Below the pieces are notes generated by a model, which did no database searches, was not told where the DNA came from, and saw nothing but the letters and a program-made list of their open reading frames with translations. Source: Thiotrichaceae bacterium (GTDB taxonomy: Bacteria; Pseudomonadota; Gammaproteobacteria; Beggiatoales; Beggiatoaceae). Taken from it: a stretch of 36,799 nucleotides of DNA. The translations under genes and the position numbers were made by a program. Location of the stretch: assembly GCA_026991885.1 (NCBI GenBank), contig JALXAQ010000233.1:1-36799 (forward strand), written 5' to 3'. Shown in pieces: positions 1,946-23,856 of the stretch; the stretch's first letter is position 1; each line of letters begins with the position of its first letter.

Positions 1946-1954
1946 AATTGCTTT

Positions 1955-1976
1955 TCCAAACTAAAGTTTGGACTCC
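1955..1976. repeat. Variant palindromic element (TCCAAACTAAAGTTTGGACTCC)
   Basis: Same GGACTCC arm with a different palindromic core. Intergenic. Confidence 0.5.
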
Positions 1977-1979
1977 TAT

Positions 1980-2582
1980 TTAGAATTTTCCACGTCTACC
2001 TAATCTTCTTTCCTGTTCTTCCCGAAGTTGGCGTAGATAATCCATGCGCTCTTCTGCCGACGCTTTCGCTTGTTCCGCTTGATTGAGCAGGCGACGGTAA
2101 TCCAATCGCCTTAGGCGTTGTTGCGACTCTGCCTTGGTTTCACCCTCAATCTCTGCGCCTAAGCAAGCTAAAAATTGTCGTGCAAATTCTTCAACACGGA
2201 GCGGACTTTGGCGGAGTAATTCCATCGTTAAAAGATTCGTCTCCATTGCGAAACTAAAAAAACAGTGCTTAAGTTGTTTTACTCGGTCCGTTTTTACGCC
2301 TAATGCCTTTTTAAGTTCATCATGATCAAGTCCTGCCACTGCAAGTGCTAAACGCTGCCGCCCTTCTTCATTCAGTTGTTCAACTAAAATCTGGAAATCC
2401 TGGGGCGCGATAAAATTGAGTTCCATATCACGATAATGATCGGCTAGCCGTGCATGGACTAATTGCATATCCACTTTTTGTTGTCCCTTTTCTATGATAT
2501 ATTTTTGATAATATCCTTCTAGTAAGCGTAATCTGACGGTAACAGTTGGGAGACTGTTAAAAAATTTTTGACGGATGTTCAT
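1980..2582 (-). CDS. Hypothetical protein (200 aa) with a charged coiled-coil C-terminal half
   Basis: ORF in operon. The E/R/Q-rich C-terminus suggests a coiled coil. No catalytic motifs seen. Confidence 0.5.
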   Translation of the reverse strand: MNIRQKFFNSLPTVTVRLRLLEGYYQKYIIEKGQQKVDMQLVHARLADHYRDMELNFIAPQDFQILVEQLNEEGRQRLALAVAGLDHDELKKALGVKTDRVKQLKHCFFSFAMETNLLTMELLRQSPLRVEEFARQFLACLGAEIEGETKAESQQRLRRLDYRRLLNQAEQAKASAEERMDYLRQLREEQERRLGRRGKF

Positions 2583-4206
2583 GCCTATTCTCTGAAAAAA
2601 GTGCGTGTGCCAATTTTGCTGCTAATTTTGGAAAATCTTCCATTTCTTCAATGCGAATGACGGTTGCTCCTGCTGCTTGATAGCGGGCATCGTTAAGTTC
2701 TCTCAAAGCATGTAGTAATAGGATAAGTTGTTGAGAGGATTGGATCGCTTCTCCCAAAATGCCGGCTGCTTGTTCGTGTTCATCATAATTATAATCAAAG
2801 TCGCTATCGCTGATGATAACGCGAATGGGTTGCGCGTCGCTAGAGTCTATCACTGAACTTTGTAGTTTTTCAAATGGAAATTGGGTGCCTGAGCCGATGT
2901 AGTGCATCAAAAAGCGCGACAATTCAATCTCGGAGCGGCACCATTGCCAATAGGCGACATGATCACTTGAATATAATAAAGCCCGTGCGCGTCCCCCGGC
3001 ACGAATAGCACCCATGACGAGTATTTGTGAAGCTAAGGTCATGGCATTGCGAGTATAGCGCGGATCGGGCATGGAGCCACTGACATCTAAATAAATTTCA
3101 ACTTTGGGTTGCCAGAGGGGGATGTCGTAGCCTTCAACTTCGGCTATTCTGTTGCGCTTTAAGGGTAGGGCGGCACCCAGTTGGTCTCCTCGATAGAGTA
3201 GTGTTGTTAACCAGTCTATATCTTGTACTGCATCTTGGGGTTCCCAGTCATCAATGGTGGTGGGGACGACGGCTTCTCCGAGTGTGCGCTGTGGCGGGGG
3301 GTGAATTAAATAACGCTCTGCTTGTTGGCGATAATAGGCGGCCATGATTTCTGGCACTTGATCGGCAGCCCCCTGTTGAAGTCCGGGCAGTCCCATGATA
3401 CGACGTTCAAGGGTATTTTGGCCATCCAGAGATTTTGCCTCTTTTTCATCGAGCCAGCCTTCTGCAAGGGCTCGGCGGATAGCTTCTTTTTCACGCGCAC
3501 TGGGGGTTAAGGCATCGGCCCAATCTTCTGGACTGGGCTCGTCTGCCGCGCATTGGTAGGGGTTGATATTTTTTGGGTGTTCAGGTGGCTTGATGTAGCG
3601 GCAGACGACGGAGATAAAGTAAAGAAATTGGGTATAAATGTTGGGGCCGAGATTGAAGAGATTTTGGGATAATAATTGTGCATCGGCGCGGTAGCTTGGA
3701 TATGCCTTTTCAAAGTCGGCGGCTCCCATCAGTGCGCCCTGTTCGGTTTGCCAAAGTTCTTCGTAAACGGCTAAATAAAAGAGAAAGGCGGGATCGTTGA
3801 GTGAGTTGTCATCAAAGGCTTGATAGATGCGAATGAGTTGGTCGCGTTGCGTATGCCCGATATGTTCGTTGATCATGATATCGGTAAATAGGTTAATCAG
3901 CGAATATTCTTCAATTGGGATCAGGGATTTTTCTAACAGGCGCAGACGGGCTTGGACAGCAAGCGTTCCCGGATAGCGTACATGATGCCCTATTTCGTGC
4001 GCCAGCAGGGCTTCGATACAGTCTTCTAGTCCTTTTTCTTTGATGGTTTTGTGGTTGAGCGTGATTTGTCTGTTGCCTAAGTGAATTTGGGCGATACTGT
4101 GTTGGTGTGAATCGTCTTTGGGTGTACTTAATAAGAGAAATTGTGACCAGTGGGCTTGTGCCTTTGGCCAGGTTTTGTTGATGATTTGATTGAGGCTTGT
4201 ACTCAT
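2557..4206 (-). CDS. Fused HExxH zinc-metallopeptidase-like N-domain plus von Willebrand A (MIDAS) C-domain protein; partner of the MoxR-like ATPase (DUF2201-like)
   Basis: LLAHEIGHHVRY (HExxH) near the N-terminus. IYLDVSGSM (DxSxS MIDAS) in the C-terminal half. 549 aa. Sits two genes downstream of the AAA+ ATPase. Confidence 0.8.
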   Translation of the reverse strand: MSTSLNQIINKTWPKAQAHWSQFLLLSTPKDDSHQHSIAQIHLGNRQITLNHKTIKEKGLEDCIEALLAHEIGHHVRYPGTLAVQARLRLLEKSLIPIEEYSLINLFTDIMINEHIGHTQRDQLIRIYQAFDDNSLNDPAFLFYLAVYEELWQTEQGALMGAADFEKAYPSYRADAQLLSQNLFNLGPNIYTQFLYFISVVCRYIKPPEHPKNINPYQCAADEPSPEDWADALTPSAREKEAIRRALAEGWLDEKEAKSLDGQNTLERRIMGLPGLQQGAADQVPEIMAAYYRQQAERYLIHPPPQRTLGEAVVPTTIDDWEPQDAVQDIDWLTTLLYRGDQLGAALPLKRNRIAEVEGYDIPLWQPKVEIYLDVSGSMPDPRYTRNAMTLASQILVMGAIRAGGRARALLYSSDHVAYWQWCRSEIELSRFLMHYIGSGTQFPFEKLQSSVIDSSDAQPIRVIISDSDFDYNYDEHEQAAGILGEAIQSSQQLILLLHALRELNDARYQAAGATVIRIEEMEDFPKLAAKLAHALFSENRHEHPSKIF

Positions 4207-4231
4207 TGCTTGTTCTCATTGATTGTCATTT

Positions 4232-5134
4232 TTAACCCGCAACCACTTGCCAAATCCGTTGTGAATCCACCGCAGTCACCAAGAGTTGCCCACAGAATAA
4301 ATATGAATAATGCTCACCAAGCCGTGTCAATTCTACCTTATTTGATTGAATTGTAACACTTGAGTCTTTAAATGTCAGATTTATATGACTTTCCTCGGTT
4401 TGGGTGTGTCCCAAGCATTTGTTATGATATAGCAAAGTCTTTGGCGCATTATTCATAAAAATACCCCCATAAACGCCATCCAGTCGGCGATCATGGACGC
4501 AAACCACGGAGGGGGCAACTTGGTGCATGTCTCCGGGGAGAAAGTTGTCGTGAATGTCGCGCCCGTCCAAAATGGAAACGCGATAGGGGGGGCGGGCTTT
4601 TTCCGGCGGACGTAGCAGCGGTGCGATAATCTCAATGAGAAAATTTTCGATTTTTGTCAAAGCCGGTAGTTCTTCGGCACGGGAGAGAATATAGAGCCCC
4701 ATCCAAGGGGTTTCTTGTCGTATATTTTCGCCCAAATTCCATATTTTTGTTATCAATTCTAATTGCTGTGCAGCGGGCACTTGAGATAAAGTCAGTGGAA
4801 TTTCTTTCAATAGACAATATTCAAGAAAGCTATTCCAAGTAATATTCAATGCTTGATGAGTGGCTTTTTTATTTTTAATCAAGTAGTTATATTGCCATTC
4901 TGGAATAGATTGTGTGATGTAAGCACTACCGATGCCTTCGCGGATCAAGTCCATGTAGCCAGCAAAGACTTTTTCTTTATTGTGTTGGTTGCGAATGTTG
5001 TGCCAGCAGAGTCGTGCCGCTCCTTTGCAAATTTCCAAGAAAAGTTCGTTATTCCAGTGGGCATATTGTTTTTGGCCGAGCGAATGGATGCGGTTGATTT
5101 CTTGGGTAAAATGTTGTGGTGTTTTGTTTGTCAT
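4232..5134 (-). CDS. Hypothetical protein (300 aa) in the MoxR-vWA operon
   Basis: ORF between the ATPase and the vWA gene with tight spacing. No recognisable motif. Confidence 0.5.
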   Translation of the reverse strand: MTNKTPQHFTQEINRIHSLGQKQYAHWNNELFLEICKGAARLCWHNIRNQHNKEKVFAGYMDLIREGIGSAYITQSIPEWQYNYLIKNKKATHQALNITWNSFLEYCLLKEIPLTLSQVPAAQQLELITKIWNLGENIRQETPWMGLYILSRAEELPALTKIENFLIEIIAPLLRPPEKARPPYRVSILDGRDIHDNFLPGDMHQVAPSVVCVHDRRLDGVYGGIFMNNAPKTLLYHNKCLGHTQTEESHINLTFKDSSVTIQSNKVELTRLGEHYSYLFCGQLLVTAVDSQRIWQVVAG

Positions 5135-5159
5135 TTTTTTTCAGTGCAGGCGCGTCGAG

Positions 5160-6671
5160 TTATGATCGGTTCAGTTTATGACGACATTGAACATAAAGGT
5201 GCTTTAATAAAACCAGGTCATTATGGACGGGGGCATTTAATTCATGTTTTGTCACCAAATTTTCCATTTCTTGTTGTAGCATCTGCAAACCTTGTTTGAG
5301 TTCTTGCTGTGGCAGTCCATCAATGCTTGTCTGAAGTTCTATGATAGGTTGTCGCAAGGCTTGATAAGCAACATGTTGTTTCAAGCTATGATCAAATAAT
5401 TGGCGTATCCAAGATACTTTGTCGGTTTGATAAACTTGATTTTCCGTTTTTTGAAAAAAGTCGCTTTGTGGATTGGGCTTGAGTTTTTCGTGTAATACCC
5501 AGGGCAAAATTTGACGGATGTCTTCATTTGAAACGGTGGTTTTTCCCCGAAAAAAGGCCAGTGCTTTGGCATAATGGATAATCGTTTGATAGGCGCGAGC
5601 GGATGCGCCGGATTCTGTTTGGGTGCAAATATTTTCAAATTTGTCCAGTGGACAATCTTCGGTGCAAACGTGTCCTACTCGGCGTCCGGCTAAATGAAGC
5701 GTATCTTTGTTTTGAAATTCCAGCGTATCCGATGCCCGTCGGCAAAAGTCGAGTTGCGAAATCAGAAATCCTAGAATTTCTAGTACTTCTGATGGCATTT
5801 CGATGGCGCGAATTTTTGTGCCGATTTGGTCTAATTCTTCAGGCGTAAAAATGATGTCAGTGGGCATGGGTTGCTCTGCGTTGTTTGCAATGCGCTTTGC
5901 TAATGCCGTCAGATAGCGGGTATTGAAAGGCGTACAGCGCACGACGATGTCGATACGATCTTTTAGGGCTTCAATGACTTGAAATGTGCCACCGCCTAAG
6001 TCATCATTTGCTGTCAAAAACCAGGCTGAATTTTGGCAGTGAATGATTTGTTCATACATTTCGGCATAGCCTTCTGCCATCAGGGACAGTAGACAGGATT
6101 GCGTTTTTGTTGGGATTCTGTTGTATTCGTCAATGATTTTGACGCGCATACTGATCCATTTGCGCCAGAGTACTCGGATATCGGCACTGTGACGCGCTTG
6201 AACTAAGTCGCTCGGCAAGGGGCTGCCCAATATATCGGCTTGCGTCATTTGTGGATGCCCGTGCTGAATGGCGTGTTTGATTTCGTCTAAGCTGTAGCCG
6301 GCAAGTAGTGCCATTAGGGTGGCAACGGTGGTTTTTCCCCGCCCGGGTGCTCCGATGAGTAAGAGGCGACGCGATGTCATCAAAGTCAGCAATGGCAAGA
6401 GGATAAAAGAGGCATAACTGTCTTCTGATGTTAAATTGATTTGTTGCTCGGAACGCCCCAAGGTGATGCGATGACCGTATTCTATGTCATTGTAGGGAGA
6501 ATAGATCGCGTTGTCTAGTATCCATTGATAGGCGAGCCGGCATTTTTCGGTGAGGTTGCCCGCTTTGGGGGATTTAAAGCTAATAGCTCCCGTGTCATCC
6601 AGTTGCGCTCTGCCTTTTAACCAGGATTGTACGAGTGTCTTAGCATCTGTTTGATGTGTGATGTTGTGCAT
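5160..6671 (-). CDS. MoxR-like AAA+ ATPase (AAA_5 type) with N- and C-terminal extensions
   Basis: Walker A LLLIGAPGRGKTTVA. Walker B/sensor region IIDEYNRIPTKTQSCLLSLMAEG, comparable to the MoxR LxDEINRAxPxxQSALLEAM. 503 aa. First gene of the operon. Confidence 0.8.
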   Translation of the reverse strand: MHNITHQTDAKTLVQSWLKGRAQLDDTGAISFKSPKAGNLTEKCRLAYQWILDNAIYSPYNDIEYGHRITLGRSEQQINLTSEDSYASFILLPLLTLMTSRRLLLIGAPGRGKTTVATLMALLAGYSLDEIKHAIQHGHPQMTQADILGSPLPSDLVQARHSADIRVLWRKWISMRVKIIDEYNRIPTKTQSCLLSLMAEGYAEMYEQIIHCQNSAWFLTANDDLGGGTFQVIEALKDRIDIVVRCTPFNTRYLTALAKRIANNAEQPMPTDIIFTPEELDQIGTKIRAIEMPSEVLEILGFLISQLDFCRRASDTLEFQNKDTLHLAGRRVGHVCTEDCPLDKFENICTQTESGASARAYQTIIHYAKALAFFRGKTTVSNEDIRQILPWVLHEKLKPNPQSDFFQKTENQVYQTDKVSWIRQLFDHSLKQHVAYQALRQPIIELQTSIDGLPQQELKQGLQMLQQEMENLVTKHELNAPVHNDLVLLKHLYVQCRHKLNRS

Positions 6672-9447: not shown

Positions 9448-9951
9448 ATGAGCAAAAAAAATTTTGATGCTTTTCTCAAAAAACATGAATCAAAAAAGAA
9501 AGAAGAAAATAATTGGGATGAAATAAAAAGAGAATGGCTTGATAAGGTAAGAGAATTCTATTCTCTTGTACATAAATGGTTAAAGGAGTATGAAAAACAA
9601 GGCCAAGCCAAACTAAAATTTTTGCCGTACTGGCTAAATGAGGAATATATTGGCAGTTACGAAACTCAAAAATTACACCTTAAAATAGCTAACCAAGAGA
9701 TCGTATTTCTCCCTATTGGTACACGATTATTTGGAGCAAAAGGTCGAATTGATATGGAGGGCATAGCCGGTAAGGTCAAGTTTTTATTGGTTGATAAAAA
9801 TGCCACAAGAGCAGGCGTTAAAGTCAAACTTTATGATGGAAAAAACCTTGATTGGGTTTGGAAAATAGCAACCCCTCCGCCTACAATTCAATTAATTGAA
9901 TTGAATGAGGAAAGTTTTTTTGATGCAGTAATGGAAGTGATAAATGGGTAA
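9448..9951 (+). CDS. Hypothetical Lys-rich protein (167 aa), first gene of an AT-rich two-gene module
   Basis: AT-rich codon usage distinct from its neighbours. RBS AGGTGG upstream. The stop overlaps the next gene's start (ATGGGTAA). Confidence 0.6.
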   Translation: MSKKNFDAFLKKHESKKKEENNWDEIKREWLDKVREFYSLVHKWLKEYEKQGQAKLKFLPYWLNEEYIGSYETQKLHLKIANQEIVFLPIGTRLFGAKGRIDMEGIAGKVKFLLVDKNATRAGVKVKLYDGKNLDWVWKIATPPPTIQLIELNEESFFDAVMEVING

Positions 9952-10483
9952 GCGAGTAAACTTTTCTGACTCAAATCTGGAGCTACATGAAATTACTCAG
10001 CATCATACTGAGACAGAAAATGCCTTGAAGGAATATTATGGTGTTGACGGTAAAAGAGAGTTTCTACCCGTTAAGTTCATTGGCTATTCGGCAGAAGAGG
10101 TATTTATCGAGTTTCGTTCCAGAATTGAAGAATTAGAAAAAACGTCATCATTGACTTTGTTGTCATCGCTTGAAGCCAAACTAAGAATTGATTATCTAAA
10201 ACGCTGTTATCAAAAAGGAAAAGATGGTTTATCAAAGGATTTTAGAGCAATACACAAGCAAAAATATCATCGAGCCTCTTTAGAAGAAGATATTCTTGAA
10301 ACTTGGAAAAAACATTACCCTGAAAAAAAATGGCTAATATCTGAGTTGCTTGGGGCTTTAAAGTATAGGCATTGGCTTGCTCACGGTCGTTATTGGGAAC
10401 CAAAATTAGGCAGAAAATACGATTACTCATACATTTATTCTTTAATAGAGCAAGCCTATAAAAACTTACCATTGAAGAGTTAA
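9944..10483 (+). CDS. Hypothetical protein with a C-terminal HEPN-like Rx4H motif (YRHWLAHGRYW); candidate RNase, toxin or Abi effector
   Basis: R-x4-H in LKYRHWLAHG near the C-terminus of a 179-aa alpha-helical-looking protein. Translationally coupled to the upstream gene. Confidence 0.5.
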   Translation: MGKRVNFSDSNLELHEITQHHTETENALKEYYGVDGKREFLPVKFIGYSAEEVFIEFRSRIEELEKTSSLTLLSSLEAKLRIDYLKRCYQKGKDGLSKDFRAIHKQKYHRASLEEDILETWKKHYPEKKWLISELLGALKYRHWLAHGRYWEPKLGRKYDYSYIYSLIEQAYKNLPLKS

Positions 10484-10497
10484 TCGCATAACAATAC

Positions 10498-10530
10498 CAG
10501 CTTTAAGTTAACGACAGCCAATTTTGATTT
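10498..10530 (+). repeat. Degenerate copy of the roughly 40-bp intergenic repeat
   Basis: AGTTAACGACAGCC... after the stop at 10483. Only the AACGACAG core is conserved. Confidence 0.35.
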
Positions 10531-10602
10531 GACATATCCTAATAAATGTCCAATACTGTATTTGAATGTATCCAGCTTTGTTTTTAATTGAGACTATAAG
10601 TT

Positions 10603-11220
10603 ATGAAAAAAAAATTTGCTTCATTCCTCATCACAGGGAAAGCGGCTACGCTCCCCTTTTTTATGAATAACAGCGTGGCTGATACCAACCTTGCAGATAT
10701 GTTATTCGATAGCAGCCAACCACAGCTAATGGAACGAGCGGGGCAAGGCATTGCGGTGACAGGTGACACGGTGCAAATCGTATCCCCTGGTCCTGGCTGT
10801 TCGTTCCCTCAGCCCACTGACATCATGAATGTCGTTGTCACGGGCGTGCGTAACGGTGATTTTGTTTTCATCGCTTCTGCTGATAACAAAGACGATCCAA
10901 ATTTTATCGCTGTCAATCCCGCTTTTAGAATTGGTCAACAAAACTTGCGTATTTTGACCAGCTTTTATGTCGATAGATTGGAATTGTCGCCACTATCCGG
11001 TTTCGAGCATGGAGGCGGCGATTTGGGCAACGCAGTGTCTGCCATTTCGGTGCCTGTGGATTTGAATCAAATATCAAGCACTGGTTTATTTTATATGCAA
11101 GCTTTGATTCTGCGTCCTAATCCGCTTACAGCAGAATTGCCAGCTACTATGGTTTTTTCAGAATTGGATGAAATTAAGCAAGTGACAGCGACTTGTGACT
11201 CTTATGGTATACATTACTAA
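10603..11220 (+). CDS. Secreted hypothetical protein (signal peptide)
   Basis: MKKKFASFLITGKAATLPFFMNNSVA-DT signal-peptide-like N-terminus. Followed by a terminator hairpin. Confidence 0.6.
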   Translation: MKKKFASFLITGKAATLPFFMNNSVADTNLADMLFDSSQPQLMERAGQGIAVTGDTVQIVSPGPGCSFPQPTDIMNVVVTGVRNGDFVFIASADNKDDPNFIAVNPAFRIGQQNLRILTSFYVDRLELSPLSGFEHGGGDLGNAVSAISVPVDLNQISSTGLFYMQALILRPNPLTAELPATMVFSELDEIKQVTATCDSYGIHY

Positions 11221-11226
11221 GGAGTG

Positions 11227-11256
11227 GTGCAAGGTACGCCTTGCACATCTTTTTTT
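11227..11256 (+). terminator. Rho-independent terminator (GTGCAAGGTACGCCTTGCAC plus T7)
   Basis: 8-bp stem with a TACG loop followed by ATCTTTTTTT. The same 18-mer recurs inverted at 33778. Confidence 0.6.
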
Positions 11257-11841
11257 ATGAGTGATACACTTTTATTTGTTGGCAAGTCTGTTAGCCTCCG
11301 TCATATTGTCCCCTCGGATGCACCTTTATACCATATTTGGCTACAAAATCCGAACTTTTTAGCCTACAAGCCCTATCTCAAGCGATTGTGCCCGACTGCG
11401 GTACAATTAGCCGTACATTTAGCGATGCAAGCACAGTCTAATCCCCGCACTGAGTTTGAAGTTTTGGTCATACAGCAGAAGAAACCCATCGGTATCATTG
11501 GCTTATCTAGTATTGATGAATTTAACCAAAAAGCTGAATTTTCAGCGGGTTTTATAAGTGGATATGGCACTCGATGTATTTGGGAAGCAATTCATGCCAG
11601 CATTGCGCTCAGTTTTACCCATTTTAAGCTGCACAAATTGATTTGCTATGTGGCTGTTCATAATCATCAGGTACTCAAAATAATGCAGCGTTATGGCTTC
11701 ATACATGAGGGCTATTTTAAGGAAGAAATATTGGTCGATGATAATCAGCGGCTCGATTTACAGCGTTTTGCGTTAATGCAGCGCGATTGGCAGCAACATC
11801 CTTTGTATCAACGTTTTAAGCGTATTGTGCCAATTAGCTAA
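11257..11841 (+). CDS. GNAT family N-acetyltransferase (RimJ/RimL-like)
   Basis: GIIGLSSIDEFNQKAEFSAGF and HKLICYVAVHNHQVLKIMQRYGFIHEGYF match GNAT A/B motif architecture. Start moved to MSDTLLF because the upstream Met lies in the terminator. Confidence 0.7.
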   Translation: MSDTLLFVGKSVSLRHIVPSDAPLYHIWLQNPNFLAYKPYLKRLCPTAVQLAVHLAMQAQSNPRTEFEVLVIQQKKPIGIIGLSSIDEFNQKAEFSAGFISGYGTRCIWEAIHASIALSFTHFKLHKLICYVAVHNHQVLKIMQRYGFIHEGYFKEEILVDDNQRLDLQRFALMQRDWQQHPLYQRFKRIVPIS

Positions 11842-11845
11842 ACCT

Positions 11846-11890
11846 TAACGACAGGGATTAGTTTTTAGCAGGGATAGGTCAAAACCGAAC
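11846..11890 (+). repeat. Copy 3 of the roughly 40-bp intergenic repeat
   Basis: TTAACGACAGGGATTAGTTTTTAGCAGGGATAGGTCAAAACCGAAC after the GNAT stop. Confidence 0.7.
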
Positions 11891-11926
11891 GCGAGCCGCC
11901 AATTTTTAACAAGGCTCCATACATTC

Positions 11927-14900
11927 ATGAAAAAAGAAACTATTCTTGTTTTTGCCCCCCATCCTGATGATGAAATTTTGGGCTGTGGCGCTTATATCGC
12001 TAAACGACGAGCGGATGGCGTGAGATGTTACGTCGTCGTCGTTAGCGACGGTGCGCGAGGCTTGCCCAGAGGAACGCTACCGGATGTCCGTCAACAAGAA
12101 TGTCGAGCCGGGTTGGCGTGTTTAGGGATTGATGATGTGCAATTTTGGGAATATCCCGATGGTGGTGTGCCATTGAGCGGCGATATTTTGCATGATTATC
12201 GGCGCATTGTTGCGGAACTGAAGCCGACTATTATTTTATTACCTAACCCGCAAGAGTCTCATTCTGATCATCGGCGCGTGACGCGAGGTGTGTTAAATGC
12301 CCTCGAAGAGCAGTGGCAAGGGCATTTATTATTTTATGAAACCGTGCATCCGGCAACCGTCATCAATCATGTCGTTGACATTTCCAGTACTTTCGATAAA
12401 AAATTACAGGCGATACAGGAACATAAGTCACAACTCCGCTCTTTTGATTTCGCTACTCATGTAGAGACTTTGGCACGTTTGCGTGGCTTACATGTTAAGG
12501 CGGAGTGTGCCGAAGCCTTTCTGCAACATGAATGGGATGGCACGGCGCAAAATTTTTTTGAAACTCGTCCCCTCATTTCAGTGATTGTGCGTGCCGATGA
12601 TGCGGATTATCTCCGCCATGCTTTGATCAGTTTAATTCATCAAACTTATGAACAATTTGAAGTGATTTTGGTTTGGTTTGGCGGCGATTCTCCCTCGCTC
12701 AAAGACTTTGATGTTTTAGATATTCGTTTTTTCCCGGGTAAACCCTCACGCAGTTTCAATCTCAATCAAGGTTTGCGCTATGCGCGTGGCGAATATGTCG
12801 CTATGCTTGATCAAGACGATATATTATATCCGCAACACTTTGCTTGCCTGCTCGCCGAAATTCACGGACAACCCCAGATAGATGTCGTGTATAGTGGTTG
12901 CAAAGTCGTTGCCTGCGAGAAAATTGACCAGCGAGTCAAAGTCAATAAAGTCATTGATGTTATGAACCGCCCTTGGCAGCCGGGGCGTTTATTGATTGGT
13001 AACACTATTCCTAACCATGCCCTGTTGTTTCGTGCTTCGGTGTTTCATAGTCATCAATTTGATGAAGATTTTGAAATTTATGAAGATTGGGAATTCTTGT
13101 CTCGCTTGAGCAATTTGACTTTTGTACATGTGGATGAGATTAGCTGTGAGTATCGTATTTTCAGCGACACCGAAATCCAATCATACATTCAAGTCCATAA
13201 GGATAAAGGTTATCTCGACCATGCACAAAAGGTCATTACATCAATTCTCAAAAATTTAGAATTGAACGACTTTGAGAAAATTATTTCTTTAGTCAACCAT
13301 TTAGAAAAGCAACAACATTTATTAACGATTCAATTGAGTGAACAAACTCAACAGCGCCAAGCACTCGCCCAACAGCTTGAACAGTCCCACCGTTTGGAGC
13401 AATTACTTGCCGATACGTGTGCCGCTGTTGGCATTGAGGCGGCGGGGAGACAGGGCATCGCGCAACTCATTGGGCGGACGCTGCCCCAGCAAACTTTGTT
13501 TTCAATTATTTTGCCTGTTTATAATACGGAGGCTACTATTCTCCGCCAAACTCTGTTGTCGGTACGCAATCAAGCCTATAGTGGTTGGGAATTGTGTTTA
13601 GTGGATGATGGCTCAGATCGTGAGGAAACGCGGCAAGTGTTGCAAGCGGTGCAAAATGATCCTGTGCTCGCAAAACGTTTACATTATCTGCGCCGCGACA
13701 CCCAAGGGGGTATTGTGGCTGCCAGCAATGATGCGATCAAAATGGCAACGGCTCCTTATGTCGCTTTTCTTGATCATGATGATAATTTGCACCATGAAGC
13801 TTTACTCAGGCTCGCTTTGAAACTTGAGCAAGAAGATTATACGTTGCTCTATACTGACAGCCGTATGATAGATCACAGCGGGCAAGCGATGCATACTTAT
13901 CAAAAAGCGGATTGGTCTCCTGAAACTTTGTTGCATTTTAATTATATTAATCATCTCACTGTCGTTAAGCGAGAAATATTGAAGGATGGATTGCGTGCTG
14001 ATTTTAATGGCGCACAAGATTGGGATTTATTGTTGCAATTAGTGGGTTTGCCAGATGAGCAGGTGTGTCATATACGCCACCCCCTTTATGATTGGCGAGC
14101 GACGGAAAGTTCGGTCGCTTACCAAGGTGATGAAAAAACTTATGCTTTTGAAGCGGCACAATCGGCGCTGATAAGTCACTTAACGGGGCGTGGTTTAGAA
14201 GAGGTTACTGCTAATAAAAAAGGGGCGGGATTTGTTTGTCAATGGCGTTCTCCCTTAGAGCCCATCGACATTATCATTCCCACCCATAGTAACCTGAGTG
14301 GACTCAAAACTTGCCTCAATGGTTTATTGCAATTGACTGATTATCCTCAATTCAATATTATTGTTGTTGCAAACCGCTGTGCTGCGCCAGTACAGAATTA
14401 TCTCAATTCTCTTGGGCAGATTAAAATATTGGTCAATGATGAGCCATTTAATTGGTCAACTCTGAATAATCAGGCTGTTATCTCGGGAGAGAGCCCTATT
14501 TTGTTGTTTTTAAACGATGATATTGAAATTAAACAGGCCAGTTGGTTGGGCGATCTCAGGCGGTATTTATATTTAGATGGTGTAGGCGCCGTCGGTGCTA
14601 CGCTGTTTTATCCAAATGACGATTTGCAACATAATGGTATCGAAACTAATCCGCAATGGGTTGCCCGTAATATCCAAAAATCGGGCAATGCGCTCCGTGC
14701 CACCCGCAACGTTTCGGCGGTGACGGGGGCGTGTCTATTAACTAAACGAAGCGTGTGGCAACAGGTGGGCGGATTCGATGAAAATTTGGCAGTATCGTAT
14801 AACGATGTTGATTTTTGTTTAGCCATCCGTCGCCAAGGACTGAGAATTGTCCAAGCCACAGATGTTGAGTTGATTCACGATGAACATGCTACTTATGGCA

Positions 14901-15043
14901 CGGTTGATAATCCCGAAAAAGAAGCTCTTTTTCGCAAAGAAATCAATTTTATGCGAGAAAAGTGGGGAGATTTTTTGAGTGAACGTTACATGCCACGTTA
15001 CGATGTACAAGCACAAAAGACGCGCATTTTACACTTAAAATGA
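11927..15043 (+). CDS. Multidomain protein: N-terminal PIG-L/LmbE-type (CE14) deacetylase plus three GT2 glycosyltransferase domains
   Basis: FAPHPDDEILGCGA LmbE/PIG-L motif at the N-terminus. Three GT2 cores: ISVIVRA...LDQDD, FSIILPVYN...VDDGSD...FLDHDD, and IDIIIPTH...FLNDDIEI. 1038 aa. Confidence 0.85.
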   Translation: MKKETILVFAPHPDDEILGCGAYIAKRRADGVRCYVVVVSDGARGLPRGTLPDVRQQECRAGLACLGIDDVQFWEYPDGGVPLSGDILHDYRRIVAELKPTIILLPNPQESHSDHRRVTRGVLNALEEQWQGHLLFYETVHPATVINHVVDISSTFDKKLQAIQEHKSQLRSFDFATHVETLARLRGLHVKAECAEAFLQHEWDGTAQNFFETRPLISVIVRADDADYLRHALISLIHQTYEQFEVILVWFGGDSPSLKDFDVLDIRFFPGKPSRSFNLNQGLRYARGEYVAMLDQDDILYPQHFACLLAEIHGQPQIDVVYSGCKVVACEKIDQRVKVNKVIDVMNRPWQPGRLLIGNTIPNHALLFRASVFHSHQFDEDFEIYEDWEFLSRLSNLTFVHVDEISCEYRIFSDTEIQSYIQVHKDKGYLDHAQKVITSILKNLELNDFEKIISLVNHLEKQQHLLTIQLSEQTQQRQALAQQLEQSHRLEQLLADTCAAVGIEAAGRQGIAQLIGRTLPQQTLFSIILPVYNTEATILRQTLLSVRNQAYSGWELCLVDDGSDREETRQVLQAVQNDPVLAKRLHYLRRDTQGGIVAASNDAIKMATAPYVAFLDHDDNLHHEALLRLALKLEQEDYTLLYTDSRMIDHSGQAMHTYQKADWSPETLLHFNYINHLTVVKREILKDGLRADFNGAQDWDLLLQLVGLPDEQVCHIRHPLYDWRATESSVAYQGDEKTYAFEAAQSALISHLTGRGLEEVTANKKGAGFVCQWRSPLEPIDIIIPTHSNLSGLKTCLNGLLQLTDYPQFNIIVVANRCAAPVQNYLNSLGQIKILVNDEPFNWSTLNNQAVISGESPILLFLNDDIEIKQASWLGDLRRYLYLDGVGAVGATLFYPNDDLQHNGIETNPQWVARNIQKSGNALRATRNVSAVTGACLLTKRSVWQQVGGFDENLAVSYNDVDFCLAIRRQGLRIVQATDVELIHDEHATYGTVDNPEKEALFRKEINFMREKWGDFLSERYMPRYDVQAQKTRILHLK

Positions 15044-15987
15044 AACCGACATTCATTTTGAAGCCCTACGAAGACGGGGATGAGCAGGCGATTCAAGCAG
15101 GCTTCTCAGCCGTTTTTCCCAGCTACCGCACCCTAGAGACTTGGCATTGGATTTATACCCGTAATCCAGATGGGGCACGTATCATGTTAGCTTGGGCAGA
15201 GAATGGTGAGCTGGCGGCACATTATGCTTGCACTGTACATACCGCATACTATGCCGGAAAGCAGGTAAGAGTGGGTTTGATCCGCGACGTATTTAGCAAC
15301 CCGGCTTATCGTGCGTTTGGGCGGCATGGGGTTTATATCCAAACGATTGAGGCTTTTGTTAAGGCATGGACAGGTGCCGATCAATTAGTGATGCTCTACG
15401 GTTTTCCTTCTGAACGTCCATTTCGCTTAGGCAAATTATTGATGGGCTATCAAGCCTTCAGCGATTGGCACGATTATCGCTACACGGTGCCTTCTGAACT
15501 TTCACAACATAGCCCGCTCGGTGTGATTCACAGCCCTAAGATATTTGATGCAGCATTTGATAGACTTTGGGAGAAACGTGCCGGGCGGTACTCATTTGCG
15601 GTTTGCCGCTCTGCCCGTTTTTTAAATTGGCGGTTTATTGATATTCCACATAAAAAGTATTGGATATGGGCATTTTCTGCTTTTTTATCAACAGAAGTGC
15701 TTGGCTATGTAGTGATTGGGCCTAATAAACCACAAGCTCAGTTAGTTGATTTTTGCTTTCCAGATGATCCACAATTAGCACAGTCATTTTGGCAACAAGT
15801 GGTAGATATTTTACGGTGGCGTGGTGTTAAAACGGTAGAAACATGGGGGGCTTGTCCAAGTTTGCAAGCCGTGGGTTTTAAGCCCCATGCACGCCCGGAT
15901 ACGATTATTCCTGTCTTTAGAAGTTTTCAGGCGGATTCGGGGTATGCTAATTTCTATTATACGATGGCAGATTCAGATTTATATTGA
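15040..15987 (+). CDS. Putative GNAT-fold (FemAB/Acetyltransf_6-like) acyl/acetyltransferase
   Basis: Start overlaps the upstream stop (ATGA). The overall size and pattern resemble GNAT-fold proteins that accompany glycosyltransferases. No single decisive motif. Confidence 0.45.
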   Translation: MKPTFILKPYEDGDEQAIQAGFSAVFPSYRTLETWHWIYTRNPDGARIMLAWAENGELAAHYACTVHTAYYAGKQVRVGLIRDVFSNPAYRAFGRHGVYIQTIEAFVKAWTGADQLVMLYGFPSERPFRLGKLLMGYQAFSDWHDYRYTVPSELSQHSPLGVIHSPKIFDAAFDRLWEKRAGRYSFAVCRSARFLNWRFIDIPHKKYWIWAFSAFLSTEVLGYVVIGPNKPQAQLVDFCFPDDPQLAQSFWQQVVDILRWRGVKTVETWGACPSLQAVGFKPHARPDTIIPVFRSFQADSGYANFYYTMADSDLY

Positions 15988-16000
15988 ATTGGAGGCGACA

Positions 16001-16756
16001 ATGAAACAAATTACACTTATTCTCATTCTTTTACTGTCAGGGTGCGGTTCTGATCCTAAAATGGAAACTTGGCCTGCCGAGCGTTTTTATGCTGAAGCGA
16101 AAGAGAATCTTGAGGCTGGTGATTATATCAGTGCTATCGAATCTTATGAAAAGCTAGAGGCACGTTATCCACTTGGAAAGTATGCCCAACAGGCGCAATT
16201 GGATATCATTTATGCTTATTATAAGCATGAAGAACCAGAATCTGCGATTGTTGCCGCTGATCGTTTTATTAAATTATATCCGCGACATAGTAAAATAGAT
16301 TATGTGTATTACCTCAAAGGATTGGTTTATTTTGAATATAATTGGGGTAGCTTGGATCGTTTTTTGCCACTGGAGCAGTCGCAGCGTGATCCAAGTGCGG
16401 CAAGACAAGCCTTGCAGATATTTTCTGAATTAGTTAGGCGCTTTCCTAAGAGTAAATATAATGAAGATGCTAAACAGCGTATGGTTTATCTGCGTAATCT
16501 GCTGGCTAACCATGAGTTAGAGGTTGCGAGATTTTATATGAAACGAGGTGCTTATATAGCAGCGGCTAATCGGGCTAAGACGATAGTAAAATCCTATCAA
16601 GGTACGCCGGTTGTGCCTGATGCTTTGGTTATTTTAGTAAAAGCTTATAAAATCAATGGATTAAATGATTTGGCGGCGGCAACGTTAAAGGTGTTGAAGT
16701 TGAATTATCCTCATCATGAGGGGATTGCGGTGGTCGAAAATTTGGTGGTTAAGTGA
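16001..16756 (+). CDS. bamD: Outer membrane protein assembly factor BamD (lipoprotein, TPR)
   Basis: Lipobox LLSGCGS. AERFYAEAKENLEAGDYISAIESYEKLEARYP TPR region. GGAGG RBS at 15991. Confidence 0.85.
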   Translation: MKQITLILILLLSGCGSDPKMETWPAERFYAEAKENLEAGDYISAIESYEKLEARYPLGKYAQQAQLDIIYAYYKHEEPESAIVAADRFIKLYPRHSKIDYVYYLKGLVYFEYNWGSLDRFLPLEQSQRDPSAARQALQIFSELVRRFPKSKYNEDAKQRMVYLRNLLANHELEVARFYMKRGAYIAAANRAKTIVKSYQGTPVVPDALVILVKAYKINGLNDLAAATLKVLKLNYPHHEGIAVVENLVVK

Positions 16757-23253: not shown

Positions 23254-23856
23254 TTACAAAGCAAAGAACAAATCATACAATTCATCAGTCGCATAATTAG
23301 CAGCAGTGCTACCATCACTGTTTTTAAGCCCTCGAATACGACCAGACGCTGATTGACCGTCATCAAGGCGAGCCTCAATGATGAGGGCAATGTTTTGAGG
23401 TATTTTGGTGAATGCAATGAACGTCCCAGAAATACCAGCCGCTCCGCTAGAAACCCCTATTATGCCAGTCAATGTATTGTTAGGTTGTTCTTGGCCAGCC
23501 CCTGCGACGAATCCTGCGTTGCGTAAGTGCAACCAAAAAAGGCGAGACTCTACATTGGCTGTTGTTGAATCAAACACACCACCAATTGTGCCGTCGCCAT
23601 CACCACATAAATTGCTGGTGCTACAATCTGCTATATCAGTAAATCTATCCGCCTTCTTGTCATCCCCAGGTAAGGCACGATAACGATCTTGATAGCTATA
23701 AATGGCTGCCACGATCCCATTATATTCATTCTCAATATTTTTGGCTCTCGCGTTGGTAATCATTTCTTGTCCTTTGAGCACTGCTCCCAACAGTAAGCCA
23801 ATAATCACCATCACTATGGCGATTTCTACTAATGTAAATCCAGTTTGTTTTTTCAT
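23254..23856 (-). CDS. Type IV pilin / pseudopilin-like protein (prepilin N-terminal methylation domain)
   Basis: MKKQTGFTLVEIAIVMVIIGLLLG class III signal plus conserved Glu5. Confidence 0.8.
   Translation of the reverse strand: MKKQTGFTLVEIAIVMVIIGLLLGAVLKGQEMITNARAKNIENEYNGIVAAIYSYQDRYRALPGDDKKADRFTDIADCSTSNLCGDGDGTIGGVFDSTTANVESRLFWLHLRNAGFVAGAGQEQPNNTLTGIIGVSSGAAGISGTFIAFTKIPQNIALIIEARLDDGQSASGRIRGLKNSDGSTAANYATDELYDLFFAL

Follow-up and report, generated by a model that had tools for sequence, protein, structure and literature searches.

The window, a 36,799-nucleotide stretch of contig JALXAQ010000233.1 from a giant sulfur bacterium of the Thiotrichaceae, contained 4 open reading frames (ORFs) running in the same direction at positions 10603-15987, with exactly the coordinates reported in the sequence-only reading of this DNA. 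These genes, here called A, B, C, and D, span about 5.4 kb and are accompanied by 2 candidate transcription signals:

10529..10557, + strand: candidate sigma-70-type promoter, TTGACA-17-AATACT, about 45 nt 5' of gene A, a pattern match only
10603-11220, + strand: gene A, 205 aa, a leader-bearing Ig-like beta-sandwich that ends in a Cys/Tyr-Gly tail, proposed as acceptor or carrier
11224-11841, + strand: gene B, 205 aa, a GNAT
11227..11256, + strand: terminator/attenuator-like hairpin, GTGCAAGG-TACG-CCTTGCAC plus a run of 7 T, between the A stop codon and the ATG at 11257
11927-15043, + strand: gene C, 1038 aa, a PIG-L deacetylase fused to three GT2 domains
15040-15987, + strand: gene D, 315 aa, a GNAT-fold protein

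The C and D ORFs meet in an ATGA overlap through which D is translationally coupled to C. In several lineages the ORFs of A and B likewise abut or overlap, with true overlaps in L083 and L085. In a consensus scan the candidate promoter matched 10 of 12 consensus positions, and the region held 18 promoter-like sites as compared with 13.2 +/- 3.5 in shuffled sequence, which is no excess. The hairpin could serve as a terminator or attenuator, and comparable structures 3' of A were confined to L093, L106, and L108, all close relatives, and were missing from the distant cassettes. Because the hairpin itself occupies 11227-11246, B may start at ATG 11257 instead of GTG 11224. Hydrophobicity analysis found no transmembrane-grade segment in A, B, C, or D, and B, C, and D are soluble.

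The fusion of a PIG-L domain to three GT2 domains in the 1038-aa product of gene C, recognised in the sequence-only reading, is borne out by Pfam annotation and by the motif HPDDEILGCG at residues 12-21. The protein is organised as follows:

11927..12541, + strand: residues 1-205, PIG-L/LmbE (CE14) metal-dependent de-N-acetylase domain (Pfam)
12569..13126, + strand: residues 215-400, GT2 domain 1 (GT2-1), with LDQDD and YEDWE, Glyco_tranf_2_2/Glycos_transf_2
13139..13486, + strand: residues 405-520, Q/E/L-rich linker from GT2-1 to GT2-2, poorly conserved, with a variable and gapped alignment
13490..14044, + strand: residues 522-706, GT2 domain 2 (GT2-2), with LDHDD and QDWD, best Glycos_transf_2 stretch 526-675
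14258..14896, + strand: residues 778-990, GT2 domain 3 (GT2-3), with LNDD and NDVD, Glyco_tranf_2_3 type (Pfam E = 1.4e-22)

In an alignment of 21 homologs sharing 37-94% identity, all 4 catalytic motif sets of C were conserved, either invariant or nearly so. The PIG-L match (PF02585, residues 7-125, E = 3.8e-27, 95.8 bits against a cutoff of 28.2) carries the (A/P)HPDD and HxDH motifs, in which H12, P13, D15, and H115 are invariant and D14, H112, and D114 are kept in at least 90% of the 21 sequences; the roles of these residues we take to be those of their counterparts in MshB, BshB, and TT1542. The nearest solved structures in the PDB are diacetylchitobiose deacetylase (E = 1.1e-12) and TT1542, and the domain is predicted to deacetylate a GlcNAc-type glycoside. 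Glycos_transf_2 (Pfam, E = 4.6e-50) was found in three separate stretches, approximately 217-400, 526-706, and 780-988, each of which qualifies as a domain of the inverting, GT-A-fold family GT2 (PF00535 or related models above cutoff, with DxD and acid-base motifs). The conserved residues are D295/D297/D298 and E386-D387 in GT2-1, D616-H617-D618-D619 and Q697-D698 in GT2-2, and N863-D864-D865 and D960/D962 in GT2-3. The closest PDB entry to GT2-1 is the PglI glucosyltransferase (E = 6e-11), while that to GT2-2 is the second domain of chondroitin polymerase K4CP (E = 2.2e-17), with a weak additional match to GalT1 (E = 4.1e-7); the TuaG, EpsD, and WcaA models of NCBIfam all scored GT2-2 under their cutoffs. 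For GT2-3 the best NCBIfam model was MftF, followed by HpsN and a rhamnosyltransferase model. The linker at residues 405-520 contained no Pfam domain and may, from its composition, be helical or coiled-coil.

Both genes that had been described as acetyltransferase-fold neighbours proved to be so. B is a clear GNAT (Acetyltransf_3, Pfam E = 7.4e-16, 59.5 bits against a cutoff of 25.4) of the RimJ/RimL/SpeG/PseH-like class, with PseH as its best NCBIfam match, below cutoff at 43.7 bits versus 93.1, and SpeG as its best PDB match (E = 2.5e-9). D was assigned to the GNATs, for which either a model above its cutoff or the GNAT fold was accepted; it is probably a tandem GNAT and has a conserved C-terminal motif, TMADSDLY.

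The architecture of C had been called unusual, but a search for it in other taxa recovered about 100 clusters of full-length homologs at 90% identity from Gamma- and Betaproteobacteria, Thermodesulfobacteriota, and Nitrospinota, and together with the sister family described below these make it neither rare nor unique. The A family is about as small, with 89 representatives. Gene order and orientation of A-B-C-D were kept in at least 9 independent lineages, which include Thiomargarita-like, Methylobacter, Sulfuricella, Giesbergeria, Chitinimonas, Thermodesulfobacteriota, and other MAG lineages, in agreement with the earlier suggestion that the 4 genes belong to one pathway; with unrelated flanking genes that differ in each lineage, they are a self-contained cassette. 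When the search was seeded on A alone and limited to the 19 loci with at least 1 kb of downstream sequence, B was directly next in 17, and then C. Chitinimonas prasina contained A, B, and C with no detectable D, and some cassettes carried extra GT4+GT2 proteins.

More distant sister fusions, 32-37% identical to C over about half of the protein, share its domain order of PIG-L and three GT2 domains and are located in polysaccharide clusters. D-like genes accompany them in L089, L123, and L122, and their neighbours are Wzm/Wzt, GtrA, or DUF2142 clusters, with Wzm/Wzt beside only 2 of the 3 fusions (L089 and L123); neither A nor B occurs alongside. Because a D-like GNAT travels with these distant fusions, the logic of a deacetylase paired with an acyltransferase, proposed in the sequence-only reading, gains weight. 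At least 577 genomic relatives of the GT2-2 + GT2-3 module were found; such relatives are common in polysaccharide clusters, and one of them is fused to a sulfotransferase and adjoins a Wza-type exporter. No priming transferase, flippase, Wzm/Wzt, polymerase, or oligosaccharyltransferase was present in the cassette loci examined or in the scanned window ORFs, and the sole export-related element of the cassette is the leader of A.

The earlier impression that no characterised pathway matches held up: no curated family, solved structure, or paper describing the cassette was found, NCBIfam equivalogs all scored far under their cutoffs for the cassette proteins, PDB matches to C were at the domain level only, and the PADLOC anti-phage defence models matched neither A-D nor the 2 upstream ORFs. 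A NodABC/PNAG-type synthase was rejected on its scores (NodC 37.8 versus 550, PgaC/IcaA 65.6 versus 422.3), on the lack of a transmembrane-grade segment, and on a deacetylase that belongs to CE14, not CE4. Assignment to the mycofactocin system failed as well (TIGR03965, 106.7 versus 280, with no Mft partners in the cassette loci), as did an ABC-transporter-dependent glycan cluster, since Wzm/Wzt (ABC2_membrane + ABC_tran) were absent from the scanned window ORFs and the cassette loci examined. Homology to NGT/HMW1C, BAHT, or GtfA/B was not found, C matching GT2-type and PIG-L models only in Pfam and NCBIfam.

One product considered in the sequence-only reading was a small GlcNAc-derived metabolite. 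The cassette would in that case make a soluble glucosamine compound (a low-molecular-weight thiol, cofactor, or glycoside) by glycosyl transfer, deacetylation, and acylation, in the manner of mycothiol or bacillithiol. The underlying chemistry has precedent, as in mycothiol synthesis (MshA/B/D) and teicoplanin-type pathways a CE14 deacetylase is followed by an acyltransferase on a glucosamine glycoside, the same logic we propose here; in teicoplanin biosynthesis, GlcNAc is transferred to an aryl hydroxyl, then deacetylated by a PIG-L-family enzyme, then N-acylated. However, the glycosyltransferases of those pathways are GT4 or GT1 enzymes instead of GT2, the teicoplanin acyltransferases are non-homologous, and the cassette has no ligase and no NRPS context. 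Scores for BshB1 (72.1 versus 182.5) and BshB2 (54 versus 195.25) fell far under the NCBIfam cutoffs, and neither a GT4 BshA/MshA nor a cysteine-adding BshC/MshC was present in the cassette or the scanned window ORFs, the cassette containing only GT2, PIG-L, and GNAT domains. A small metabolite is the least likely option for the product, and in our view very unlikely, because the cassette has neither a ligase nor a GT4, its three GT domains exceed what a monosaccharide conjugate would require, and the sister family sits in polysaccharide and glycan-export clusters; it also offers no role for the dedicated leader-bearing protein A.

The secreted protein had been treated as a bystander, yet strict co-occurrence with the enzymes, a hyper-conserved leader, and a conserved Tyr-Gly tail make A the most informative member of the cassette and the probable acceptor or carrier of a glycan. 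Its 2 distinctive segments are:

10603..10680, + strand: leader, residues 1-26, MKKKFASFLITGKAATLPFFMNNSVA, followed by D27 (conservation over 68 sequences)
11194..11217, + strand: tail, residues 198-205, C-D-S-Y-G-I-H-Y, with a conserved Cys, a Y-G motif, and a terminal Tyr

Across 68 sequences, the mean frequency of the top residue is 0.72 at leader positions 2-20 versus 0.38 in the core, and individual positions reach 0.99 (F5), 0.96 (L9), 0.99 (G12), 0.97 (K13), and 0.97 (A15). A leader more conserved than the fold that it precedes implies recognition by a dedicated partner, and leaders of this type occurred only on A-family proteins in the approximately 1.5 Mb of sequence scanned. The earlier claim of secretion is favoured by the basic character of the N-terminus, by disorder of the first 36 residues with an AxA-like site close to residue 26, and by fusions of some A homologs to PKD and FG-GAP extracellular-type domains. 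The leader is weakly hydrophobic, however, its best 12-residue Kyte-Doolittle mean being 1.17, whereas the signal peptide of BamD in the same window reaches 2.76, so that secretion of A is plausible only.

Between leader and tail lies a conserved, generic Ig-like beta-sandwich of 150 residues. The tail is disordered and follows the pattern C...Y-G...Y-COOH, with C198 and Y205 invariant in a 16-sequence alignment and frequencies of 0.93 for Y201 and 0.82 for Y205 among the 68 sequences; the last residue of A-family proteins is Tyr in 70 and Phe in 4 of 101 sequences. Relatives have longer tails, with 80-120 aa of YGG repeats that are acidic and S/T/D/G-rich, and a Y-G motif is found again in the linker between leader and core. 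In the window itself, A has just one Y-G and its tail is very short. Divergence is much faster in A than in the enzymes, with 37-40% identity between the window and L093 versus 71-75% for B, C, and D, and the family shows tandem paralogs and variable tails. Tandem paralogs and variable tails are frequent among exposed glycoproteins. The generic fold, the conserved leader, and the disordered Tyr-Gly tail give A the appearance of a substrate and not of an enzyme.

Conserved tyrosine and nearby cysteine residues at a C-terminus could also mark a precursor whose tail is cleaved and matured to a glycosylated peptide, as in RiPPs or mycofactocin. MftF is the best curated model for GT2-3, and radical-SAM/SPASM genes or domains occur in 2 cassette variants (L081 and L102). 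These radical-SAM genes, however, are mutually non-orthologous and missing from most cassettes, including the window, the MftF score of 106.7 lies far under the cutoff of 280, and MftA, MftB, MftC, MftD, and MftE are lacking. The conserved core of the cassette encodes no protease, peptide-recognition protein, or maturase, and A is a folded protein instead of a short peptide, its conserved and sometimes PKD/FG-GAP-fused Ig-like core being an odd choice for a disposable leader. We regard this explanation as highly improbable.

Our preferred model, advanced tentatively and with a confidence somewhat short of even, is that A, while still in the cytoplasm and not yet exported, receives a short glycan whose hexosamine has been de-N-acetylated and re-acylated, the work of C, D, and B. 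We infer its acceptor, sugars, step order, acyl donor, and export route as follows. A would be made with its family-specific, weakly hydrophobic leader, which the cassette enzymes would recognise and which would slow or gate its export. While A is still cytoplasmic, a GT2 domain of C would add an N-acetylhexosamine to a hydroxyl of the disordered, S/T/Y/G-rich Tyr-Gly sequence in its tail or linker, with the conserved Y-G tyrosine as prime candidate. The PIG-L domain would then strip the N-acetyl group, and D would re-acylate the freed amine; alternatively B could do so, or could act on another amine. The other two GT2 domains would lengthen the glycan, and modified A would be exported and its leader cleaved after the AxA site. 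We count in favour of A as acceptor the linkage of the 4 genes, the substrate-like features and fast divergence of A, the abutting or overlapping A and B ORFs, the solubility of B, C, and D, and the lack of lipid-carrier and export genes in the cassette and the scanned window ORFs; sister clusters combine the D-like gene with lipid-linked-glycan genes and have no A or B, whereas the cassette has the A leader instead. Precedents are the dedicated cytoplasmic glycosylation of Sec substrates discussed below, MftF as a GT2 enzyme that builds a short chain on the Tyr-derived C-terminal moiety of a ribosomal peptide (PMC7491314), and cacaoidin, a Tyr-glycosylated RiPP (bioRxiv 10.1101/2020.05.20.105809). 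Teicoplanin biosynthesis, described above, is another. Against the model stand the single Y-G and very short tail of A in the window, the weak hydrophobicity of its leader, and the lack of a detectable D in Chitinimonas prasina.

A lipid-linked acceptor would be the conservative default, because the relatives of GT2-2 + GT2-3 and the sister family are polysaccharide-linked. C and D, perhaps with B, would then make an oligo- or polysaccharide, either free or lipid-linked, with glucosamine or N-acyl-glucosamine among its sugars, while priming (WecA-type) and export (Wzm/Wzt- or Wzx-type) would be encoded elsewhere; the secreted A would serve to bind, anchor, or organise this glycan instead of accepting it. 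The sister fusions with D-like genes in Wzm/Wzt, GtrA, or DUF2142 clusters, the numerous module relatives such as the sulfotransferase fusion, and the likeness of GT2-2 to the second domain of chondroitin polymerase all fit such a role, as do the extra GT4+GT2 proteins of some cassettes, additions of a kind also made in variable surface-glycan loci, and the frequency of carbohydrate binding among Ig-like sandwiches. Left unexplained are the conservation of the A leader above the fold, the conserved Tyr-Gly tail, and the presence of A and B in place of the transporter genes of sister clusters, and no gene for priming, flipping, polymerising, or ligating was found in the examined cassettes or scanned window ORFs. 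We consider this alternative possible, though on the unlikely side; if true, the cassette would still be of moderate interest, as a glycan module that is conserved, so far uncharacterised, and tied to a secreted protein as its obligatory partner.

A more elaborate version of glycosylation on A is a proteoglycan-like system, which we judge improbable. A would be a small exported Ig-fold core protein with a glycan primed on tyrosine of the acidic, Gly-rich Y-G-G repeats, a glucosamine linker made by GT2-1, PIG-L, and D, and a chain extended by the chondroitin-polymerase-like GT2-2/GT2-3, all in the cytoplasm. The invariant Gly-Lys of the leader would act as an export gate, perhaps neutralised by the RimJ/RimL-like GNAT B after modification. 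Such a system would be a new glycan export route, with a carrier protein and its leader taking over from the lipid carrier and ABC transporter on which the sister clusters rely. Chondroitin polymerase (K4CP/KfoC) likewise joins two GT2 domains in one chain, a tandem GT-A arrangement in a soluble polypeptide like that of C, but the likeness is confined to one domain, kps context is lacking, and C has an extra GT2 and a PIG-L domain.

Serine-rich-repeat glycoproteins of Gram-positives resemble the preferred model, in which A would be glycosylated before export, in several respects. They undergo multi-step cytoplasmic O-glycosylation starting from GlcNAc on a low-complexity region of an exported protein, and an unusually conserved signal peptide of low hydrophobicity controls their routing. 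GalT1, one of the follow-on glycosyltransferases of these GtfA/B and accessory Sec systems, is the weak match of GT2-2. In contrast, the cassette lacks GtfA/B (GT4) and SecA2/Y2, occurs in Gram-negative hosts, has Tyr-Gly rather than Ser-rich sequence, and includes a deacetylase and GNATs. ABC-transporter-dependent glycan assembly of the O-antigen/S-layer type also uses soluble multidomain glycosyltransferases, and the sister fusions in such clusters have the same domain order and the same D-like Acetyltransf_9 partner, but the cassette has A and B instead of Wzm/Wzt or any lipid-carrier gene. To our knowledge, tyrosine-linked glycans and hexosamine de-N-acetylation with re-acylation on protein are both rare in bacteria.

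NGT and BAHT enzymes are dedicated to cytoplasmic glycosylation of Sec substrates in Gram-negatives (PMC8151025). The genetic logic of the cassette is shared with HMW1C-type NGTs (HMW1A/EtpA) and BAHT (AIDA-I/TibA/Ag43), in which a soluble transferase adjoins a single exported substrate that is modified before Sec (PMC8151025). Those enzymes belong to the GT41 and BAHT families, unrelated to GT2 and PIG-L, and place single hexoses or heptoses on Asn or Ser/Thr of large adhesins with no deacetylase or acyltransferase, whereas the cassette combines three GT domains with de-N-acetylation and acylation and has a small Ig-fold putative substrate, a conserved leader, and a Tyr-Gly motif. On Sec substrates known to be glycosylated in the cytoplasm, the sugar is a single hexose or heptose (PMC8151025). 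A multi-sugar chain on an exported protein goes beyond these and counts against A as acceptor.

If A is the acceptor, the cassette would be a widespread and previously unnoticed Gram-negative route to a surface or secreted glycoprotein, in which one soluble four-domain enzyme and 2 acyltransferases decorate a dedicated carrier with no lipid carrier, flippase, or oligosaccharyltransferase. A compact set of 4 genes whose enzymes are all soluble would appeal for glyco-engineering. The A leader, conserved above its fold and too weakly hydrophobic for a typical Sec signal, raises the question of what coordinates modification with export, as yet unanswered for the NGT and BAHT systems too (PMC8151025). 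The cassette is carried by 2 cultured strains, Giesbergeria anulus ATCC 35958 and Chitinimonas prasina NBRC 110044, which make the model directly testable.

The feature studied spans positions 10603-15987 on the forward strand and comprises four genes, designated A to D, with ORFs exactly at the coordinates proposed in the sequence-only reading. The genes and the two candidate regulatory elements are:

10529-10557, candidate promoter upstream of A
10603-11220 (+), gene A, 205 aa, leader-bearing protein with an Ig-like core
11227-11256, 8-bp GC-rich hairpin with a T7 run, directly 3' of the A stop codon and before an ATG at 11257
11224-11841 (+), gene B, 205 aa, GNAT
11927-15043 (+), gene C, 1038 aa, PIG-L deacetylase followed by three GT2 domains
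15040-15987 (+), gene D, 315 aa, GNAT-fold protein

A and B are separated by 3 nt, and C and D overlap in an ATGA. Translation of B may actually begin at the ATG at 11257. A post-A attenuator was considered as a general cassette feature and rejected, since no hairpin and T-run of this kind was found outside the window and its close relatives; differential expression of A versus B-C-D would therefore be at most a trait of this lineage.

The fusion of a PIG-L deacetylase with three GT2 domains in a single 1038-aa polypeptide, as first read from the sequence, is borne out by Pfam, which places all four domains in C: the PIG-L domain at residues 7-125 (E = 3.8e-27) and three distinct GT2 stretches (Glycos_transf_2, E = 4.6e-50) at approximately residues 217-400, 526-706, and 780-988, referred to here as GT2-1, GT2-2, and GT2-3. 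A poorly conserved Q/E/L-rich linker (approximately residues 405-520) lies between GT2-1 and GT2-2. In an alignment of 21 full-length homologs (37-94% identity), the HPDD and HxDH motifs of the deacetylase, LDQDD/YEDWE of GT2-1, LDHDD/QDWD of GT2-2, and LNDD/NDVD of GT2-3 are invariant or nearly so, and because the catalytic signatures of all four domains are kept, all four look active. B is a clear GNAT (Acetyltransf_3, E = 7.4e-16). D barely passes the Acetyltransf_9 threshold (25.8 bits versus 25), its AF2 model built from 11 sequences is poor (pLDDT 55), and a PDB profile search with 15 D sequences returned nothing significant (best AAC(2'), E = 0.098), so that D is assigned at the level of the GNAT superfamily. 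A has no match in Pfam or NCBIfam, and none of the four proteins contains a segment of transmembrane-helix-grade hydrophobicity.

The architecture, called unusual in the sequence-only reading, is not unique: approximately 100 full-length relatives of C (clusters at 90% identity) have an identical domain order, and a more distant sister family does as well. Hosts of the C relatives include Candidatus Thiomargarita nelsonii, Methylobacter, Sulfuricella, Sulfurisoma, Chitinimonas, Giesbergeria, Thermodesulfobacteriota, and Nitrospinota, with the window C clustering at ≥90% identity with Ca. T. nelsonii fragments. Neighborhoods were read in Sulfuricella, Methylobacter, a Thermodesulfobacteriota MAG, two more MAGs, Giesbergeria anulus ATCC 35958, and Chitinimonas prasina NBRC 110044, the last two being cultured carriers. 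The A-B-C-D order and orientation are constant across them and the flanks differ in every lineage, which supports the original grouping of C with two acetyltransferase genes and a secreted protein. D is absent only in Chitinimonas, where the cassette (L003, 8737-13147) has no detected D and an A protein that ends in ...DSCTAP, without the Tyr-containing tail described below. This joint absence, a single case, would fit a model in which D acts on a modification attached to the tail.

The same association is recovered when the search begins from A. A scan of metagenome contigs seeded on the A alignment alone gave 32 loci. In 19 of these, 1 kb or more of sequence follows A, and B comes next in 17, the two exceptions having an additional A paralog; C follows B wherever the contig extends far enough. 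Among 1.84 billion representative proteins, a profile search found only 89 A-family members, about as many as there are C relatives, and A is on this basis essentially restricted to the cassette. A genome scan seeded on C was dominated by two-domain GT2-GT2 relatives, with four full-length loci among the matches listed. In the window, the cassette lies between thioredoxin reductase and BamD genes, amid housekeeping genes. A plasmid-borne or mobile origin was rejected because a comparison with 72,556 plasmids gave no match to A and only distant ones (≤35% identity) to the PIG-L domain, and a role in anti-phage defence was rejected because PADLOC matched neither the cassette proteins nor the two ORFs upstream of them.

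A-family proteins have four parts: a leader, a variable linker, a folded core, and a tail. The leader follows the consensus (K/R)(K/R)F-A-S-(F/Y)-L-L-T-G-K-A-A-T-L-P-F, with a small-x-small site approximately eight residues further on (A26|D27 in the window A). Across 68 full-length sequences, the mean top-residue frequency is 0.72 at positions 2-20 versus 0.38 in the folded core, and F5, L9, G12, K13, and A15 each reach at least 0.96. This motif is confined to A-family proteins within the approximately 1.5 Mb of sequence searched. The leader is only weakly hydrophobic, its best 12-residue Kyte-Doolittle mean being 1.17 in the window A and 1.36 on average in the family, versus 2.76 for the signal peptide of BamD, also encoded in the window. 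Tat export was rejected by reading the leaders, in which K-K or K-R mostly precedes the Phe and a twin arginine is not conserved. Three A members carry PKD or FG-GAP domains C-terminal to the core, domains typical of extracellular proteins, which supports export of A.

Many orthologs have x-Y-G motifs in the variable linker, and one member has approximately ten NAYGQTTGTG repeats there. After a conserved SELDEI motif the tail reads C-x(1-4)-Y-G-x(2-6)-Y-COOH, with frequencies of 0.93 for Y201 and 0.82 for the terminal Tyr (68 sequences); when fragments are counted, the C-terminal residue is Tyr in 70 and Phe in 4 of 101 sequences. Closer relatives of the window A have tails of 80-120 residues with acidic Gly-rich (D/G)-x-Y-G-G repeats. 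The C-terminal aromatic residue raised the idea of an outer-membrane beta-barrel, which was discarded given a Gly-rich, disordered, and length-variable tail. A evolves much faster than the cassette enzymes: in the cassette at L093, A is 37-40% identical to its window counterpart and B, C, and D are 71-75% identical. Tandem A paralogs occur at L100/L101 (973-2887) and L109 (1-849), with neither B nor C in the next 1.8-4 kb; one has D/G/S-rich Y repeats in its tail and the other a Pro/Glu/Cys-rich tail (CEPEPGPVGP), and some genomes thus carry additional A copies apart from the enzymes.

To our knowledge, every characterized PIG-L/LmbE enzyme (PIG-L, MshB, BshB, diacetylchitobiose deacetylase, and the teicoplanin deacetylases) de-N-acetylates a GlcNAc glycoside. 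Fusion of such a deacetylase to glycosyltransferases, with a GNAT as constant partner, suggests a pathway in which one GT2 domain of C would transfer GlcNAc to an acceptor, the PIG-L domain would free its amine, a GNAT would re-acylate this amine or it would be left charged, and the remaining GT2 domains would add two more sugars. The logic is chemically like that of mycothiol and teicoplanin; in teicoplanin biosynthesis, a GlcNAc placed onto an aryl hydroxyl is deacetylated by a PIG-L-type enzyme and then N-acylated. This deacetylase, glycosyltransferase, and re-acylation chemistry was part of the sequence-only reading and gains support from the D-like GNAT that also accompanies the sister fusions. 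The small GlcNAc-derived metabolite offered there as one product is, by comparison, improbable: BshB models are not matched, neither a GT4 nor a ligase is present in the cassette, and three GT2 domains exceed what such a product would need. Of the interpretation as a whole, the grouping and the chemistry stand, and uniqueness and the small metabolite are given up.

The "secreted protein" A is probably central to the system, and we tentatively favor it, at somewhat short of an even chance, as the acceptor of the glycan. Several features point in this direction: linkage of A to the enzymes is strict, with frequent translational coupling to B; constraint on its leader far exceeds the needs of Sec, implying a dedicated partner that reads it; its tail, disordered and rich in S/T/Y/G, has a conserved Y-G tyrosine and resembles an O-glycosylation region; every enzyme is soluble; and the cassette has no lipid-carrier or export gene, a role filled by Wzm/Wzt in the sister clusters, A's leader being the sole export-related element here. 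A leader this weakly hydrophobic would suit slow post-translational export, leaving time for modification. Each element of the scheme has a precedent, teicoplanin biosynthesis being one. Dedicated cytoplasmic glycosylation of Sec substrates is known in Gram-negatives (PMC8151025). MftF, the best-scoring curated model for GT2-3 though far under its cutoff, is a GT2 that adds sugar to a C-terminal moiety derived from tyrosine (PMC7491314), and cacaoidin is a Tyr-glycosylated RiPP (bioRxiv 10.1101/2020.05.20.105809).

The sister family bears on a different acceptor. These PIG-L-GT2x3 fusions are 1170-1260 aa long and 32-37% identical over approximately half of the protein; two lie in Wzm/Wzt clusters and the third beside GtrA-like, DUF2142, and further GT2 genes. 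Each of the three has a D-like neighbor (HMM E = 1e-21, 5e-18, and 1.6e-6), and A and B are absent from all three clusters. Because D is kept and A and B are not, the fusion and D together resemble an older unit for glycan building, and it is A and B that define the cassette. In evolutionary terms, the cassette derives from ABC-transporter-type multidomain glycan synthases. Given this family and the relatives in polysaccharide clusters, the conservative view is that the product is a lipid-linked or free glycan and A its secreted partner. We rate this view somewhat less likely than A as the acceptor; it does not account for the conservation of the leader, the Tyr-Gly tail, or the lack of a carrier or export gene. 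Among the window ORFs scanned, none was identified as a gene for priming, flipping, exporting, or ligating a glycan.

Relatives of the GT2-2 plus GT2-3 pair are very common (at least 577 in the genome scan). One, encoded in a Thiotrichaceae MAG (L060, 8393-11626), is a 1077-aa sulfotransferase-GT2-GT2 fusion. Its neighbors are a methyltransferase, a GT4, and a Wza-type (Poly_export/SLBB) exporter, and the locus probably specifies a sulfated polysaccharide. In some relatives, D has an N-terminal SAM-dependent methyltransferase-like extension (L106, 18705-20555, and P0148, the latter annotated as cyclopropane-fatty-acyl-phospholipid-synthase-like), which hints at methylation as an additional modification step.

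The glycosyltransferase complement differs between lineages, as shown by added or substituted proteins. Three related cassettes have an additional GT4+GT2 protein of approximately 1,220 aa between B and C (L106, 11659-15312; L108, 11700-15341; L110, 5418-9122), whose C-terminal approximately 600 aa have no Pfam match. In a Thiomargarita-like locus (L102, 9998-15859, and the near-identical L103) that has the window's TrxB neighbor at 85% identity, A and B are followed by a 1011-aa GT4, GT2, and radical-SAM/SPASM fusion in place of C, and no D was detected. Two cassette variants and two sister clusters have radical-SAM/SPASM genes, either adjacent to them or within them. In the sister clusters, an orthologous gene (51% identity) accompanies the sister fusion and D-like gene at L089 (4886-6178) and L123 (4636-5913), which suggests a conserved radical-SAM glycan-modifying step in the Wzm/Wzt sister family. 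Those of the cassettes are related at superfamily level only and missing from most cassettes, and no inference is drawn from the link. A RiPP-like product cleaved from the A tail is very improbable, as this radical-SAM association is inconsistent, the conserved core has no protease or maturase, and A itself holds a conserved folded core.

The absence of a characterized pathway for this architecture was confirmed against the sources searched: NCBIfam release 20, Pfam, and PADLOC hold no model for the cassette, PDB structures show single-domain similarity only, full-text literature searches found no description of an A-B-C-D cassette, and database names for its proteins are generic. The NGT, BAHT, and SRRP cytoplasmic protein-glycosylation systems are nearest in working logic but have no enzyme family in common with it. 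We regard the cassette as an uncharacterized, phylogenetically scattered glycoconjugate module, apparently distinguished by a dedicated leader-bearing carrier protein.

Elsewhere in the window, two overlapping ORFs of 167 and 179 aa (9448-10483, +) between thioredoxin reductase and the cassette have no match in Pfam, NCBIfam, or PADLOC, and were rejected as members because no other cassette locus contains a homolog. Six co-directional genes at 379-6671 (-) look like an operon, with a radical-SAM protein (379-1266), an AAA ATPase (AAA_3/AAA_5 plus AAA lid, 5160-6671), and four ORFs of 237, 200, 549, and 300 aa without a Pfam match. Two further features appear unrelated to the cassette: a TgpA-type transglutaminase paired, as is common, with a DUF58 gene (29793-32662, -), and, separately, a protein whose N-terminus has a type IV pilin-like methylation motif (23254-23856, -). 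The BamD ORF as mechanically listed (15887-16756, +) overlaps the end of D; translation probably begins instead at the ATG near 16001 (MKQITLILILLLSGC, a lipoprotein signal), which lies 14 nt past the D stop codon.
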